Source: an uncultured Gemmatimonadales bacterium
Lineage (GTDB): Bacteria; Gemmatimonadota; Gemmatimonadetes; Gemmatimonadales; GWC2-71-9
DNA length: 64,000 nt
Direction: 5' to 3'
NCBI GenBank assembly: GCA_963821525.1
Contig: CAWGED010000019.1
Span: forward strand, 256,001-320,000
Part shown: positions 3,805 through 38,577 of the stretch, one piece after another
How positions within the stretch are numbered: the first letter of the stretch is position 1
How the letters are laid out: every line of letters begins with the position of its first letter
Program-made: the position numbers and the translations under genes
Notes under the pieces: generated by a model
The model's input: the letters and a program-made list of their open reading frames with translations, nothing else
Told to the model about the DNA's origin: nothing
The model's database searches: none

Positions 3805-3930
3805 GGAAGGTAGGCGGGGATGGCGGGAGGGCGGTAGGGCGATCAGGCGGTAGGGGTTGTGGGTGGTGGGTGGTCGATGGTCGATGGTCTTGTGCTTACC
3901 GCCTTACCGCCCTACCGCCTTCCCGTCCAA
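3805..3930. repeat. Inverted 8-mer arrays (GGCGGTAG-type / TTACCGCC-type) enclosing a short TGGTCGA 7-mer array
   Basis: Left GGCGGGAG GGCGGTAG GGCGATCA GGCGGTAG; middle TGGTCGA TGGTCGA TGGTC; right TTACCGCC TTACCGCC CTACCGCC. Confidence 0.7.
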
Positions 3931-10326: not shown

Positions 10327-10382
10327 GACGGGAGACGGGAGACGGGAGACGGGAGACGGGAGACGGGAGACGGGAGACGGGA
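10327..10382 (+). repeat. Perfect tandem repeat (GACGGGA)x8
   Basis: 56 bp read directly, beginning immediately after the thrC stop. Confidence 0.97.
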
Positions 10383-10440
10383 GCACCGCGAGGGTACGGC
10401 TACTGCTGCGCAAATAGCCATTGGCTGCGTCCTGGTAGCA

Positions 10441-10489
10441 GCTAATGGCTAATTGCTAACAGCTTATGGCTTACGGCCTACAGCTTATG
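10441..10489 (+). repeat. Degenerate 7-mer array, consensus GCT(A/T)A(T/C)G x7
   Basis: GCTAATG GCTAATT GCTAACA GCTTATG GCTTACG GCCTACA GCTTATG. Confidence 0.8.
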
Positions 10490-23867: not shown

Positions 23868-23947
23868 TCGATGGTCGATGGTCGATGGTCAATGGTCGAT
23901 TGGAGTAGTCGTTGAAGGACCATCGGACTACCGACTATCGACTATCG
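23868..23947. repeat. Inverted 7-mer arrays (TCGATGG)n ... (GACTATC)n
   Basis: TCGATGG x3 TCAATGG TCGATTG, spacer, GACCATC GGACTACC GACTATC GACTATC. Confidence 0.85.
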
Positions 23948-23954
23948 CCTTCCC

Positions 23955-27077: not shown

Positions 27078-27247
27078 GGGTCTTGGGTCGTGAGTCTTGG
27101 GTCTTGGGTCAACGTCTCTAGCGATGTCGCTGGGGGGTGGAGAATCTACTCGGCATCTCAGCTTCAGGCATCCCCCAGAGGCATAGACCCAAGACGTCAT
27201 GGCTCAAGACTCACGACCCACGACCCATGACCCACGACCAACGACCC
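27078..27247. repeat. Inverted 7-mer arrays (GGGTCTT)n ... (ACGACCC)n bracketing a divergent intergenic region
   Basis: Left 27078-27110 GGGTCTT GGGTCGT GAGTCTT GGGTCTT GGGTC; right 27206-27247 AAGACTC ACGACCC ACGACCC ATGACCC ACGACCA ACGACCC. Confidence 0.9.
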
Positions 27248-29233: not shown

Positions 29234-29263
29234 TGACACCGACCAGCGACCCTGCTGCCTCAG

Positions 29264-30979
29264 CTACTCGATGAAGTCCACCCAACCGGCTTCATTGGTG
29301 ACGACCGCAACGGTCCCTGCGGCGTTGACTCCGACCCGGCGCGGCGTTCCCCAGTATTGAGCAGAGTCCGCTGCTGTAAGGTTGTCCGGTCGAGAATCTC
29401 GATGGTCGCAAAAGTTTCGACCACGATGAGCTCGTTGGTTGTGACGCCCAGGCCGAAGCCAGGACCGGCCAACGGGACGCTCTTCACCTGCAGGCCCGAA
29501 CTGATGTTCCACACCTGCAGGTAGCCCGACTCGTTGGAGACGTAGAGTTCGGTTCCCGCAGGGGACAGCCCCAGACCCATGGGAGAACCATTTGTCATGT
29601 AGGTGCGGATTATCGTGCGGGTTACCGTGTTCACCTCCACTGCCGTGCCCGCCCCCGCCATGCTCACGTACAGCCGAGGCAACGTGGGATGAACCACCAT
29701 GAAGTTCGCGAAGCTTGCCGGGCAGCGAGTCCGTGAGTTGGTTGGTCGAGGCGTCGGCGAAGTACAGTCTCTCGTTCGTCCCGATGAAAATCGTCTTGTT
29801 GTCTGGGGACACCCCGACGGAGTAGGGGGTACTCCCAAGACCAGTGATTGGAGGAAGAACCAGATTGGTGGCCACATCAATCACCCCAACGGCGCCGTCG
29901 TTGTTCAGGGCTACATAGGCCCGGGTACCCGCGGGTTGATCGCCATGCCAAGTGGGAGGTTCCCCACCGTCACCGGCGATCGGAGAGTGTAGCCCGGGAG
30001 GGTTCCCCGTACGAAGCTCGACGAGTTCAACAGCCCCACGTATGTCTCGCCACCGGGCCCGACGGCGACTCCATAGGGATTTCCGGCGACCGGAGTCGTC
30101 GCTGCCCGGACCCCCTGCATCCCCGTGGTAACGAACACCGGGACCAAAAAGGTGAGACTGCCGCTCTTTGCGTTAAGGCTACCTGTGCCGGTACCGCCGA
30201 TTGAGGTAACCAACCCCGCCGCCGACAGGGAGAAGAGCGAAGGATCATGATTGACGTAGGTTACCGACCGCCGCGCAATTGGATTCCCCAGACTGTCCAG
30301 TACCTCAGACACGAGTTGTTTGGTTCCCCTGGCCGAATCACCACGCTGCTGGGCGTGGTCGGAACGCTCGTGGCAACGAGATAAACGGTGACCGGCACCT
30401 TGATTTGAATGGCGTCCACCACGACGGTGATCGTGGCGGTACCGGTCGGCCCGACGGCGATCACCTCTCCAGGACTGGCTGACTGTTACAACTGATGGCT
30501 TGCTGGACGTGAAGCTGAACAGTCCGACGTTGAAAACGGGATTGCCGAGGAAATCTGTGGCATCAAACGACAGGATCCTGGTGGTGTTCCGGTGCATCTG
30601 AATCGAGGTGGGCGTTACGGTGAGGTGCATCACCCGTTGCCGGACCAGTACCCGAACCGTATGAGTGAGACCATCATCTTCTGCCGTAATGAACGTGCTT
30701 CCCAGCGGCCCCACCGAGGTCATCAGGCCCGTAGCCGTGATGGTGACGACACTTGGGTTGTCGGAAGAGAACCTCACCGACCGGCCGGGGATGGAACGCC
30801 CAGCGGCATCCACTACGGTTCCCGTGAGCTGCAGGGTGAGCCCCCCTGTCGATGACCGGCTGATTGGGAATGAGAATGATGTCAGCTGGCACCCGGACTC
30901 AGGTGCTATCGCCCCCGCAGGACACGCCCAGGGCGAGGAGCGCAAGCAGACACAAGACCGCCCGCGTCGAACGAGTCAT
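29264..30979 (-). pseudogene. Lipoprotein with three Ig-like (Big_2) domains and YVTN-type beta-propeller; nonsense codon plus several frameshifts
   Basis: MTRSTRAVLCLLALLALGVSCGGDST-TGA(30899-30901); FSSDNPSVVTI, SSKPSVVTVS Ig repeats; GNPYGVAV, GSTPYSVGVSPD, GSPMGLGLSP blades in different frames. Confidence 0.7.
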
Positions 30980-33352: not shown

Positions 33353-34243
33353 ATGACGAATCCGCTTCCCGCCAAGGTGGTCCTGGGCCTGGTGCAGATG
33401 GCCATGTCGGACGACAAGCCCGACAACATGCGCCGCGCGGTCGCCGGCGTCAGGGAGGCCGCAGCCAAGGGCGCCAAGGTCATCTGTCTGCCCGAGCTGT
33501 TCCTGAGCCGGTACTTCTGCCAGGTCGAGGACCACCGCTTCTTCCAGCTCGCCGAGCCGATTCCGGGACCGAGTACCACCTCGCTCGGCGCCCTGGCCAA
33601 GGAGCTTGGTGTCGTCATCATCGCATCGCTGTTCGAGAAGCGCGCCGAAGGTCTGTATCACAACACCACCGCGATTCTCGATGCCGACGGGAAATACCTC
33701 GGCAAATACCGGAAGATGCACATTCCGGACGACCCCAACTATTACGAGAAGTTCTATTTCACCCCGGGCGATCTCGGTTTCCGCTCCTGGGACACGCAGC
33801 ACGCCAAGGCCGGCGTACTCATTTGCTGGGACCAATGGTACCCCGAGGCCGCAAGGCTCACTGCGCTGACCGGGGCGCAGATCCTCTTCTATCCCACTGC
33901 GATCGGTTGGCTCATTCCCGAAAAGGCGGAGTACGGCGCGGCCCAGCAGGCCTCGTGGGAGACGATCCAGCGAAGCCACGCGATCGCGAACGGCGTCTAC
34001 GTGGTGGCCGTCAACCGGGTCGGCGTTGAGCCGGGGCCCAACCAGGGGATCGAGTTCTGGGGCGGCAGCTTCGTCGCGGCTCCCAACGGCGAGATCATCG
34101 CGAAGGCGGGCACCGGCGAGGAGACGATCGTGGTCGAAGTGGACACTGGTCGAGTCGACGTCGCGCGCACGCACTGGCCGTTTCTGCGGGACCGGAGAGT
34201 CGATGCGTATGGGGGGATGACGAGTCGGTATTTGGATGACTGA
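33353..34243 (+). CDS. aguB: N-carbamoylputrescine amidase (carbon-nitrogen hydrolase)
   Basis: CLPELF..YFCQ, YRKMHIPDDP.YYEKFYFTPGD, ICWDQWYPEAAR, WPFLRDRR. Confidence 0.92.
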   Translation: MTNPLPAKVVLGLVQMAMSDDKPDNMRRAVAGVREAAAKGAKVICLPELFLSRYFCQVEDHRFFQLAEPIPGPSTTSLGALAKELGVVIIASLFEKRAEGLYHNTTAILDADGKYLGKYRKMHIPDDPNYYEKFYFTPGDLGFRSWDTQHAKAGVLICWDQWYPEAARLTALTGAQILFYPTAIGWLIPEKAEYGAAQQASWETIQRSHAIANGVYVVAVNRVGVEPGPNQGIEFWGGSFVAAPNGEIIAKAGTGEETIVVEVDTGRVDVARTHWPFLRDRRVDAYGGMTSRYLDD

Positions 34244-34244
34244 C

Positions 34245-34641
34245 CTATTGCCGATTGCCGATTGCTGATTGCCGATTGCGGCTCACTCGCTCCACACTCT
34301 TTTCCGCAGTTCGACGAGCTGCGATTACGATCGAGAGCAGTTCATTGCCCTCAACTAGAAGCGCCTCAATCCGCTCGCGGGATGCCGATCCGAGATCTCT
34401 GAGCAACTCCAACCAGAAAAGGGTTTCGTCGCATTCCTCAACGACGATACTGAGCTTCGCGACGAACTCGCGCCGGGACCGGGCTCGGCAAACAGCTCGA
34501 TAGTTTGCCCCGACAGACGTTGCCGACCGCGTGAGTTGATCGCAGATGATCTGCGCATTCTCTCGATCGAGGCAGACTGCGACAGACCAACACAACTTGA
34601 AGGGCGAACGCCTTTGTCCGCCGCTTCATTTGAGAGGTCAT
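34245..34641 (-). CDS. Four helix bundle protein (TIGR02436 / 23S rRNA IVS / Avd-like); 1-nt frameshift near 34558
   Basis: MTSQMKRRTKAFALQVV..CRSLP joined to QLTRSATSVGANYRAVCRARSRREFVAKLSIVVEECDETLFWLELL. Confidence 0.9.
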
Positions 34642-34784
34642 CCCGCTTGTGTCAGGCCTGTGATCGAGCTCCATGGCGGGCAAGTTGTGGCATCAGGGTG
34701 GGTGAAACGGCACCCAAATGTTTCATCCACAGCCAAAGGAAACGCCGTACAATCAGCAATCGACAATCGGCAATCGTCAATTTT
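34247..34784. mobile_element. Putative cassette: inverted 7-mer arrays (ATTGCCG)5 / (CAATCGN)5 enclosing a four-helix-bundle gene
   Basis: Left arm 34247-34281, right arm 34750-34784; fills the aguB-aguA gap almost exactly; mobility inferred only. Confidence 0.55.
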
Positions 34785-34785
34785 C

Positions 34786-35873
34786 ATGTCTAACCCGACT
34801 CCGGCTACGCTCGGCTACCAGATGCCGCCAGAATGGTGGCAGCACCGGGGCACCTGGCTGAGCTGGCCTCACAGAGAATCATCGTGGCCCGGGAAGTTCC
34901 AGCCCGTGCCTCATGTCTTCGCCGAGATGGTGCGACTTCTCTCTCCGCACGAGGAAGTGCACATCAACGTCACCGGCCAGGAGATGGAAGACGCGGTACG
35001 GGCAATTCTGGTGGAACATGGCATCGCACCGTCGGCAATTGGCCGAGCCGCGAGCGCCGAGCCGTCGAGCGTTGTTGTTTCCACCACAACCCCACCAACG
35101 ACGCCTGGTGCCGCGACCACGGCCCCTGCTTCATCCAGCGCAACGTGAATGGCCGGCGCGAGGAGGCCATTGTGGACTGGGGGTACAACGCGTGGGGCGG
35201 GAAATATCCGCCGTTCGAAGATGACGACGTGATCCCCACGAAAATCGCCGAGGAGTTTGGGATTCCGGTCTACCACCCGGGCATCGTGATGGAGGGAGGC
35301 AGCCTCGATGTGAACGGAGCGGGGACCCTGCTGACCACCGAATCCTGCCTGCTCAACCCCAACCGCAATCCCTCGCTCACCCGGGAGGAGATCGAGCGTT
35401 ACCTGATGGACTACCTGGGCGTTCGCCACATCCTCTGGCTGGGCGAGGGGATCGTGGGCGACGACACCGATGGCCACGTGGACGACCTGTCTCGGTTCAC
35501 CGATCCCTCCACCATCGTCACCGCGGTGGAAATGGATTCGAGCGACGAGAACTACCGGCCGCTGAAGGAGAACCTCGATCGTCTCCGCGGCATGCGGGAC
35601 CAGGACGGCAATCCCTTCCGAATCGTCACCCTGCCGATGCCGCCGGCGGCGTACTACGAAGGACAACGGCTCCCGGCGAGCTACGCCAACTTCTACATCG
35701 CGAACGGCGTCGTTCTCCTGCCGTCTTACGACCCGACGACCGACGAGATCGCCCGCCAAACCCTGCAGCGCTGCTTCCCGACCCGCCGGGTCACCCTGCT
35801 CGATTCCCGGGACCTGATCTGGGGACTGGGGTCATTTCATTGTGTGACGCAGCAGTGGCCGGGGGTGGGATAG
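34786..35873 (+). CDS. aguA: Agmatine deiminase; frameshift near 35075
   Basis: MPPEW..H.GTWLSWPH, NDAWCRDHGP, MEGGS, DDTDGHVDD, ASYANFYI, GSFHCVTQQ. Confidence 0.93.
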
Positions 35874-35904
35874 GCGAGATCTTGGTGATTGAAGATTGAG
35901 GATT

Positions 35905-36279
35905 TCAGATTGAAGATTTTCGGCTCGCGACCTTCCGCTCGAGCGTCAGCTTTGTCGCGGCTACAATCGCGACAAGCTCGCTGGCCTCTTTCAAAAGCGG
36001 ACTGATAGCCTCGATCTTTGCGACGCCCGACTCCGCCGCCAGTTCGAACCAGAACACCGACTCGTCCGCCTCCTCGAGAACAATCCCAATTTTTGCAGCA
36101 AACTCGCGGCGTGACCTCGCTCGACAGGCGGCACGGTAATTGGCCCCTATCGAGGAAGAGCTCCGTATCAATTGTCCCGCAATGACCCTGCCCTCAACCG
36201 TAGCCGGCAAGGTTCGGCAGAACCGAATCGCACCTGCGGCGAAAGCTCTGGTTCGCCGCTTCATTTCTTCCGGGGTCAC
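35905..36279 (-). CDS. Four helix bundle protein (TIGR02436 / 23S rRNA IVS / Avd-like)
   Basis: MKRRTRAFA, QLIRSSSSIGANYRAACRARSRREFAAKIGIVLEEADESVFWFEL; start GTG 36279 or ATG 36264. Confidence 0.92.
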   Translation of the reverse strand: MTPEEMKRRTRAFAAGAIRFCRTLPATVEGRVIAGQLIRSSSSIGANYRAACRARSRREFAAKIGIVLEEADESVFWFELAAESGVAKIEAISPLLKEASELVAIVAATKLTLERKVASRKSSI

Positions 36280-36320
36280 ACCGAACAATTACCCTGCCCT
36301 GGGCCCGGTAGCCCCGCCAT

Positions 36321-36362
36321 AGAAACGCAAGCCGGGTCCTCCGCACGCGCGAGGAACCCGGC
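36321..36362 (-). terminator. Probable intrinsic terminator of the glutamine synthetase gene
   Basis: GCCGGGTTCCTCGCGCGTGCGGAGGACCCGGC hairpin followed by TTGCGTTTCT on the minus strand. Confidence 0.55.
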
Positions 36363-36427
36363 CCTTACTGTCCAATACTTCTGATTTCAAATCTTCAATC
36401 TGAAATCTTCAATCTGAAATCGCCTCC

Positions 36428-38577
36428 CTACTTCAGAAACAACATCTCCCGATAGGTTGGCATTGGCCACAAACTCGACTCCACGTGCAGCTCGATCGTG
36501 TCGGCCAGGGTGCGGAGGTCGGCCATGGCGGGCTTGACCTTCTCCTTGATCCACTGCGCGTGCTTGATCGGGTCGCCATCCTCGTGAGCGACCGCCTTCT
36601 CCAGGCTGCCCAGTGCTTCCCGGAACCGGGAGACCAGGTTGACGAACTCGCCCAGCGCCTGGTGGGTATCCAGGCACTTGACCCCGGCCGCCTCGGTCAC
36701 CGACACCGCCTGCGCCACCTTCGCCTGATGCTGCAGCGCCGCGGGCAGGATCATCGTGCGCGCCATGGTGATCATGGTCTGCGCCTCGATGTCGATCTGC
36801 TTGACGTACTTCTCGTACGCGATGTGGGTCCGCGAATCGAGCTCGGCCTTGTTCAGGACGCCGTACTTCTTGAACAGGTCCGCGATCTTCTTCTGGCGCA
36901 GGACCGCGAACGCCTCGACCGAGTCCCGGAAGTGCGGCAGGCCGCGCTCCTCGGCCTCATCGTGCCACTCGGCGGAGTAGTTGTCGCCCTCCGAAGATCA
37001 CCCGCTTGTGCTGCCGGATCACCTTCTTGAGCACCGAGAGCACCGCGGCCTGCAGCCGGGCGGGCGTCGGGGTCTTCCCCGCAGCCTTCTCCAGCTCCGT
37101 CGCCATGTAGTCGAGCGATTCGGCGGCGATCGTGTTCAGCACCGTGTTGGGCCAGGCGATGGTCTGGCTCGAGCCCACGGCGCGGAACTCGAACTTGTTC
37201 CCGGTGAAGGCGAAGGGAGAGGTCCGGTTCCGGTCTCCCGAGTGCCGGGGGAGCTGGGGCAGCGTCCGGGCGCCCAGATTCAGCGTCCCGCCCCGGATGG
37301 TGCGCTTGGGCAGGCCCTTCTCGACCTGGTCGCAGGATGTCCTCGAGCATGTCGCCCAGGAACATCGAGATGATCGCCGGAGGCGCCTCGTTGGCGCCCA
37401 GACGGTGATCGTTCGGCGCCGAGGCGATCGAGGCCCGCAGCAGATCGGCATGGAGATCCACGCGCCCGGATCACGGCGCAGAGGAACACCAGGAACTGCA
37501 TGTTGGTGTGGGTCTCATCCTGCGGGTCGAGGAGGTTCACCCCGGTATCGGTCGCCATCGACCAGTTGTTGTGCTTGCCCGATCCATTGACGCCGGCGAA
37601 CGGCTTCTCGTGCAGCAGAGCCGCGAGGCCGTGCCGCTCCGCCACCCGCTTCAGCGTCTCCATCATGAGCATCTGATGGTCGCTCGCGATCTGGCTCATT
37701 TCGAACAGCGGAGCAATCTCGTACTGCGCGCGGGGCCACCTCGTTGTGCCGGGTCTTGACCGGCACTCCCAGGCGATAGAGCTCCCGCTCGCAGTCGGCC
37801 ATGCAGGCCAGAACGCGCTGGGGGATCACCCCGAAGTACTGGTCCTCGAGCTGCTGACCCTTGGGAGGCCGGGCGCCGAAGAGGGTCCGCTCGCAGGTGA
37901 GCAGATCAGGCCGCTGGAAGAAGTACTCCCGGTCGATCAGGAAGTACTCCTGCTCCGGGCCCACCGTGGTGTAGACCTTGGTGACCCCCTCGTCGTTGCC
38001 GAAGATCTTCAGGATCCGGAGCGCCTGCTTGGAGAGCGCCTCCATCGAGCGGAGCAGCGGGATCTTGGTGTCCAGCGCCTCGCCGGTCCAGGAAACGAAC
38101 GCGGTGGGGATCACCAGGGTCGTGGCGCCGTTCGCCCCGCATGAGAAACGCCGGGCTGGTAACATCCCACGCCGTGTAGCCGCGGGCCTCGAAGGTGGCC
38201 CGAAGGCCGCCCGACGGAAAACTCGAGGCGTCCGGCTCGCCCTGTACCAGCTCCGATCCCGAGAAGTTGTAGATCACCCCGCCCTGCCCGTCGGGCTGAA
38301 CCAGCGAATCGTGCTTCTCCGCGGTCAGCCCGGTCAGCGGCTGGAACCAGTGAGTAAAGTGCGTGGCGCCATTCTCGATGGCCCAGTCCTTCATGGCCGA
38401 AGCGACGACATCGGCCACCTTGGGATCGAGCGGCTCGCCCCGATCGATGGTCCGCAGCAGACTCCGGAAGACATCCTTGGGGAGGCGCTGGCGCATGACG
38501 TCACGGGAGAAGACGTCGGCGCTGAAGATGGTGTCAATGCGGACGGGCGTACCGTTGGAAACGGCAGGAATCGTCAC
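36428..38577 (-). CDS. glnN: Glutamine synthetase type III; about five frameshifts
   Basis: [100 protein letters not shown] across fragments. Confidence 0.92.

Follow-up and report, generated by a model that had tools for sequence, protein, structure and literature searches.

The window that we analysed, a stretch of 64,000 nucleotides, contains two plus-strand genes that enclose a third gene on the opposite strand. The first, at 33353..34243, encodes an aguB-like N-carbamoylputrescine amidase and ends in a TGA at 34243, and the second, at 34786..35873, begins with an ATG at 34786 and encodes an aguA-like agmatine deiminase. These names are those of the best NCBIfam matches, whose scores fell below the curated cut-offs (for aguB, 313.8 bits with TIGR03381, cut-off 410). 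The space between the two genes is bounded by heptamer arrays. The left arm, composed of five units of the ATTGCCG type (34247..34281, plus strand), is anchored at the aguB stop codon, and the right arm consists of CAATCGN-type units (34750..34784, plus strand). Within these arms, the segments 34247-34278 and 34750-34781, 32 nt each, are complementary at 28 of 32 positions (88%), the latter ending 4 bases ahead of the aguA ATG. The enclosed gene, which encodes a predicted four-helix-bundle protein (PF05635/TIGR02436), lies on the minus strand at 34245..34674. It would comprise approximately 142 codons from a putative start at the ATG at 34674; the left arm encodes its C-terminal tail, and its TAG is one base away from the TGA of aguB. 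A leader of 75 nt (34675..34749, minus strand) separates the right arm from the start of the gene and is the presumed seat of the gene's own promoter; a search of this leader for a minus-strand consensus promoter found none. On the plus strand, one sigma70-like site was found at 34726-34753, overlapping the right arm, where 0.6 would be expected, and its -10 hexamer was not seen in the corresponding copy of a related genome, G004. With aguB and aguA on one strand and the gene between them on the other, the locus has the layout of a noncontiguous operon.

When the region 34200-34830 was folded in silico, the two arms paired in both the MFE and the centroid structure (z -4.07), and none of 20 shuffled sequences was as stable. 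If the arms pair as predicted, 7 unpaired bases separate the aguA start from the stop of aguB. The PF05635 protein was all that the insert encoded, with no transposase, and no direct repeat of the kind left by target-site duplication was found around the arms, nor was one found when empty and filled junctions were compared. The first-pass annotation of this DNA agrees with much of the above. Its positions for the aguB stop, the arrays and the aguA ATG were borne out on re-reading the sequence, and the arm alignment confirmed its match of 28 of 32. It had also read the C-terminus NRQSAIGNRQ from the left array, which is correct for the sequence of the window, and had noted no transposase and no obvious target duplication, a statement that we uphold. 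Its proposal that the arms would loop out the insert and bring the stop beside the start holds as a prediction, since the fold that it had called for does pair them.

The four-helix-bundle assignment, likewise made in that annotation, was confirmed by profile scores above both cut-offs, obtained with the C-terminal part alone (TIGR02436, 69.9 bits, cut-off 24; PF05635, 51.9 bits, cut-off 33.8). The assembly splits this antisense gene by a frameshift near 34556, where it has one surplus base. This base was absent from the contigs of all four short-read runs, which came from four studies, and the frameshift is thus an assembly error. The same is true of the frameshift in aguA, since three of the four runs add four bases at 35050-35077 (the fourth run had no cover there). 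The genes at window positions 29260-30945 and 36428-38577 are also broken into several ORFs, probably by assembly frameshifts too. In three of the four runs an extra base follows 34329, which shifts the frame near the 3' end of the antisense gene; the array-encoded tail is therefore allele-dependent, and the variant at 34329 represents a natural allele with an altered tail.

The cassette protein is under purifying selection. Comparison of the gene with its G004 copy gave a dN of 0.16 and a dS of 1.27 (dN/dS of approximately 0.13), and a second cassette gene of the window, described below, gave a dN of 0.03 and a dS of 0.19 against its counterpart in genome G003 (dN/dS of about 0.16). The low dN relative to dS in both genes argues that the protein is expressed and selected. 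Because the gene is antisense to the operon, it would need a promoter of its own, from which it is likely to be expressed. A solved relative is 2RLD (E 1e-10). The relationships of the cassette proteins were taken from pairwise distances in place of a tree, which gave no resolution and had one row in the wrong frame. No match to the reverse transcriptase profile PF00078 was found in the source genome (G000, 81% complete) or among the ORFs adjoining the four-helix-bundle gene, and no catalytic partner of the protein was found.

A second cassette of the same build, composed of other units, follows aguA at 35884-36424. Its left arm (35884..35919, plus strand), made of GATTGAA/GATTTCA units, comes after the aguA stop, and its right arm (36389..36424, plus strand) ends where a minus-strand gene has its stop (36428); by eye, this gene reads as a putative glutamine-synthetase-like gene. 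The enclosed PF05635/TIGR02436 gene (35905..36288, minus strand) is 54% identical to the first and lies between convergent genes. At this site, G003 carries an orthologous gene that is 94% identical, and G002 carries a different gene (58% identical, with synonymous sites saturated) together with different arms, despite a dS of 0.22 between its aguB and ours. Gene and arms have also been swapped at this site in G004, where aguA and the second cassette are separated by an extra unidentified ORF (locus L033). In another relative, G031, yet another family member follows aguA.

From 61 genomes we took the 30 best-matching aguB loci and compared their aguB-aguA junctions; aguA was adjacent in all 30. 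Three junctions contained the gene and its arms (G000, G004 and G011), four contained an empty hairpin built of a different unit (G002, G003, G006 and G036), and 23 had no arms; in several of the latter the aguB stop and the aguA start overlap. The insert is thus optional, since 23 of the 30 junctions have neither the gene nor the arms. The precise absence for which the first-pass annotation had proposed to look is not seen in the two closest genomes, G002 and G003, which have the empty hairpin of another unit. Both are 98% identical to our genome in aguB, and G004, which has the filled junction, is the outgroup to G000, G002 and G003. These two nearest relatives have therefore probably lost the gene or had it overwritten, with no recognisable trace in the loop, and the copy at this site, common to G000 and G004, is old. 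Some DNA and RNA contigs did contain joints that skip the insert. In these joints the arms were separated by 7-32 foreign letters, and the sides measured 20-33 nt; given the foreign letters and the short sides, we rejected them as excision products and read them as other empty hairpins.

Replacement of this kind was seen at other sites as well. Orthologous hairpin sites were mapped in 400 kb of each of two relatives (17 in G003 and 13 in G004, of which the script called 15 and 10, respectively). At orthologous empty hairpins the loops were unrelated (score of 10 or less) at 9/15 sites in G003 and 8/10 in G004, with flanks that were 80-98% identical. The unit differed by at least 2 bases at 5/15 and 5/10 sites, respectively, including 3 switches in G003 that were clear by eye. 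Hence a hairpin site is kept while its arms and loop content are replaced. Among the pairs that we compared, we saw no two sites with near-identical copies of a cassette.

Heptamer arrays are abundant in the source genome. We counted 724 arrays of period 7, as compared to 5-136 for periods 5, 8, 10, 11 and 13, and a stretch of 600 kb that contained 95 such arrays contained none after codon shuffling. The arrays form 240 inverted pairs, 223 of which are gene-less with loops of up to 200 nt. Among these 223 hairpins, no unit occurred in both orders, and the first arm was G-rich in 182. The left arms alone use more than 60 units, and dozens of unit families coexist within one genome. The empty hairpins start beside stop codons, at a median distance of 1 nt (n=210). 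They are enriched between convergent genes (50/174, as compared to 172/1493 of all 60-400-nt gaps), divergent gene pairs are depleted in them (14/174, as compared to 245/1493), and only 32/110 co-directional ones are tight to both the stop and the called start, start calls being rough. Within the window, further arrays or empty hairpins, each with its own unit, occur at 3854, 10327-10487, 23868-23950, 27078-27246, 29199 and 31126, and some of them extend neighbouring ORFs.

The family genes are closely tied to such repeats. All 13 PF05635 genes of the genome lie between inverted repeats (score of at least 16), whereas among 1051 control genes of the size range 270-540 nt only 7 do so; the repeats are mostly of period 7, some of period 8 or mixed. 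Neither of the window's two cassette genes was picked up by the gene caller, and the control set consequently contains no such genes. Genomes of the source genome's genus hold 12-13 family copies each. Similarly, matched arms were present on both sides of the family gene at 67 of 80 loci in other phyla, and the arrangement of arms plus gene is not special to aguBA. Ten empty hairpins use the unit family of the aguB-aguA cassette, with different loops. We considered whether empty hairpins might be deletion remnants, but none of 134 loops matched any of 40 cassette interiors, which leaves this origin unsupported. Among these loops, 100/134 had no other match in the genome and 34/134 had one, mostly by way of a REP-like insert. 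This REP-like palindromic element, with up to approximately 80 genome matches, lies inside about 20 of the 134 loops (for example C12:247093-247219 and C18:14832-14958), and its presence there would fit loops that serve as tolerant landing places.

RNase III is a nearly universal bacterial enzyme. In a profile search of G000 (81% complete) no RNase III gene was found, and searches with two models gave no match in 60 of 61 genomes, the single match being on a contig of 1.5 kb. In a sample of the phylum, RNase III was found in 0/183 genomes of eight related families and in 16/17 genomes of four other families, and 8/14 control genomes were positive. The apparent clade-wide loss rests on profile searches, which a highly diverged enzyme could escape. 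A literature search, to which subscription journals were largely closed, found no report of RNase III absence in this phylum. The first-pass annotation had suggested that the stem could be an RNase III substrate; processing by this enzyme is unsupported here, because the lineage has no RNase III match. The mismatches in the arms showed no G-U preference either, with G-U and A-C pairs on the host mRNA at 73 vs 80 in the empty hairpins and 27 vs 29 in the antisense cassettes. Sense cassettes of RNase III-positive lineages had a mild G-U bias (98 vs 62, p 0.005, n=59; 69 vs 49, p 0.08, n=44), which could also be mutational. We also considered whether the family and RNase III exclude one another and rejected this, given that family f10 has both and families f6 and f7 mostly have neither.

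The orientation of the gene relative to its host operon differs between these groups. At the co-directional junctions of G000 the gene was antisense in 8 cases (in one of them a gap of 600 nt lies to one side) and sense in none; three other family genes lie between convergent genes, and two have no orientation call. In five near genomes (30 of 61 loci), 15 co-directional copies were antisense and 1 was sense, and these genomes together with G000 provide at least 11 distinct antisense sites. The wider kin without RNase III (30 genomes) had 10 antisense and 6 sense copies. By contrast, all 6 co-directional copies in the RNase III-positive family f10 (21 loci) were sense, as were 45 in other phyla, where 2 were antisense. 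The latter figures refer to the best 80 of 597 loci, which are matches to one subfamily, and two methods of strand calling agreed at 69/69. An RNase III match was present in 43 of the 45 genomes of other phyla with sense loci, and in both antisense exceptions too. Orientation thus follows the presence of RNase III, with one lineage on one side and two exceptions on the other; because one lineage-wide loss underlies all of the cases, this amounts to a single evolutionary contrast. In the simplest interpretation, genomes that have RNase III purge antisense copies, which are tolerated where the enzyme is gone. Loss of the enzyme accounts for this tolerance, and not for the strong antisense excess in the genus. 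The leader also differs, with a median of 108 nt here (n=29) as compared to 50 nt in sense cassettes elsewhere (n=41, p 2e-6); sense cassettes of this lineage have long leaders as well (median of 122 nt, n=7). A -10-like box was weakly enriched in the leaders (6/28 vs 2.8 expected). In family f10 (loci L149-L170), 11/22 PF05635 matches have internal stops, as compared to few in this genus.

Several known systems share parts of this anatomy. The 23S rRNA intervening sequence (IVS) found in Coxiella burnetii, located in helix 45 and encoding S23p, has a 28-bp terminal stem that RNase III cuts, a 5' arm with heptamers and an ORF in the sense direction (PMC4990558), and the function of the S23p family is called unknown in the accessible text of that report. 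ORF-bearing IVSs resemble our insert in protein family, in size (428-444 nt vs 535 here), in a stem of approximately 28-32 bp and in tandem heptamers of varying number (PMC4990558). However, the insert lies between protein genes and not in a 23S gene, it is antisense to the host transcript, its lineage shows no match to RNase III, it belongs to a set of 13 dispersed copies that have different units, and its protein is under purifying selection. The analogy with rRNA IVSs drawn in the first-pass annotation therefore stands for the family, the stem and the heptamers, but not for location, strand or processing enzyme: the module is IVS-like, in that the stem is predicted to hide the insert, and lies outside the IVS class.

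The heptameric intergenic repeats of Xanthomonas and Nostoc likewise have a period of 7, inverted pairs, fixed polarity and a position beside stop codons (PMC4692102). In two Xanthomonas genomes, 70 and 75 inverted pairs are described, with the G-rich arm on the sense strand no more than 50 bp downstream of a stop, and they are rare between divergent genes (PMC4692102). Unlike these, our genome has dozens of unit families that switch at fixed sites, and the cassette units (ATTGCCG/ATTGCTG) have no run of three G and hence no G-tract of the quadruplex type. Other heptamer systems are the TAACTGA repeats of Beggiatoaceae (PMC4679880) and the paired heptamer sites of Geobacter metallireducens (PMC2700814). 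A term search of the accessible text of PMC4692102, PMC4679880 and PMC2700814 found no mention of S23 or helix-bundle genes, and the design of a gene between heptamer arms was not found in our literature search, which covered few subscription journals.

In excludons and noncontiguous operons, RNase III digests the overlapping transcripts as part of regulation (PMC7154746). The aguB-aguA locus shares with the noncontiguous operon an opposite-strand gene inside an apparent operon and, as predicted here, a fully overlapping antisense transcript (PMC7154746). It differs in that RNase III was not found, that the gene is stem-enclosed and optional, and that co-transcription is presumed from the gene layout. 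REPIN/RAYT systems also combine a gene between inverted repeats with many gene-less extragenic hairpin doublets (PMC3116915), but here no HUH (Y1) transposase lies between the arms and neither units nor loops are shared copies. The four Y1_Tnp genes of G000 (C12:49440, C12:7145, C1:35924 and C19:590173) each have their own non-heptamer inverted repeats, with scores of 27-29, and the regions at C12:7145 and C1:35924 are near-identical, flanks included. With neither a transposase nor a target-site duplication, the cassette is also unlike an insertion sequence or MITE. Finally, PF05635 is reported to be homologous to Avd, a protein of diversity-generating retroelements (PMC10053308) that is shaped like a barrel and has structured RNA lying over it (bioRxiv 10.1101/2023.10.23.563531). 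The cassette protein has this family homology, whereas a retroelement would bring the reverse transcriptase that we did not detect in the 81% complete genome; by analogy with Avd, the cassette protein might bind RNA.

How such modules arise and persist can be explained in several ways. They could be active mobile elements that need no transposase, in which the four-helix-bundle protein, aided by a host enzyme, constructs heptamer-armed hairpins at stop codons or introduces them there. The hundreds of empty hairpins would then be non-autonomous products of this protein, in the way that REPINs depend on RAYT. The family gene is always found between arms, the genus has 12-13 copies per genome, whole modules are replaced at fixed sites, ten empty hairpins share the unit family of this cassette with different loops, and many dispersed copies are under purifying selection, all of which would suit an active element. 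We nevertheless regard this as a rather doubtful possibility: there is no reverse transcriptase match in the genome at its 81% completeness, the pairs compared show no near-identical cassettes at different sites, loops are mostly unique (the 34/134 with another match owe it mostly to the REP-like insert), and the copy at aguB-aguA is old, being common to G004. To our knowledge, moreover, the PF05635/S23 family has no known catalytic role.

Alternatively, there may be no cassette at all, the hairpins being fast-mutating 3'-end structures, such as the mRNA stabilisers or terminators suggested by the Xanthomonas repeats, and the gene an ordinary solo gene between arrays. The start of empty hairpins at stops and their enrichment between convergent and depletion between divergent genes are consistent with this, the same placement is published for Xanthomonas (PMC4692102), and the sigma70-like site at 34726-34753 could transcribe aguA alone. 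We find it unlikely in view of the 13/13 family genes between inverted repeats as compared to 7/1051 controls, the matched arms at 67/80 loci of other phyla, and the joint swapping of gene and arms at the second site. Less probable still, and in our judgement improbable, is the earlier model of an mRNA intervening sequence whose stem is cut by RNase III or a stand-in nuclease to release the loop. In its favour, the insert is like the Coxiella IVS that RNase III cleaves in the length of its stem and in its heptamer arms, the predicted fold agrees, and the model may hold in the RNase III-positive lineages where sense cassettes have the mild G-U bias. Here, however, the lineage has no RNase III match, and an excised loop could not encode the protein, since it would be antisense to the gene. 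In addition, the 23S rRNAs of G000, G003 and G004 are of normal length and have no IVS (the G000 gene, of 2962 nt and on another contig, matches the whole model), and all contig joints across the insert carry the letters and short sides that other empty hairpins would give. In four metatranscriptome runs, searched as contigs of which small shares were sampled, mostly from other organisms, 34370-34690 had no cover, which weighs neither for nor against any of these readings.

The reading that we prefer, to which we would give an even chance, is that the aguB-aguA insert is an optional and swappable heptamer-armed hairpin that is fixed to the aguB stop, holds an antisense gene in its loop and likely persists uncut in a lineage with no RNase III gene. 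It builds on what was seen directly, namely the anatomy, the three junction states, the replacement of arms and loops, purifying selection, the lack of an RNase III match and the switch from sense to mixed or antisense orientation. The arms would pair on the aguBA mRNA and hide a loop of 470 nt, and because they would do so, the insert is predicted to cost the operon little even if it is not excised. The gene would have a promoter to itself in the lengthened leader, and the result would be the noncontiguous-operon layout. Where RNase III is kept, it would cleave the part of the transcript that overlaps the operon mRNA, and this would account for the rarity of antisense copies in RNase III-positive bacteria. 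At the weakest step of this scheme, modules would enter and replace one another at existing hairpins, whose loops would be safe landing places, and the protein, being related to Avd, an RNA-binding pentamer, may help in this turnover. More tentatively, and with more doubt than belief, we suggest that heptamer-armed four-helix-bundle cassettes generally are transposase-free, replaceable elements at stop codons that are hidden in an RNA stem and seed the empty hairpins of many bacteria, with RNase III policing their orientation and its loss in most of the phylum having freed antisense copies with promoters of their own.

Members of the PF05635 family are very common, and for decades no function has been known for them; heptamer repeats, too, are a class of bacterial repeats that lacks an explanation. 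The aguB-aguA junction ties the two together at one site. The anatomy resembles the known IVS and Xanthomonas-type heptamer systems, and what is new is the relation between orientation and RNase III. With three states among close relatives, turnover is directly measurable at one junction, and a large clade apparently without RNase III, in which cassettes change orientation, provides a natural experiment. A simple test follows from it, in which a sense and an antisense cassette are compared with and without RNase III. The same clade raises the question of rRNA maturation and double-stranded RNA clearance where RNase III is missing. Heptamer-armed modules may also carry cargo other than PF05635 genes, as small genes outside this family lie between matched heptamer arms of the usual polarity at three places in G000 (C7:75085-75835, C12:68155-68864 and C4:21810-22563).
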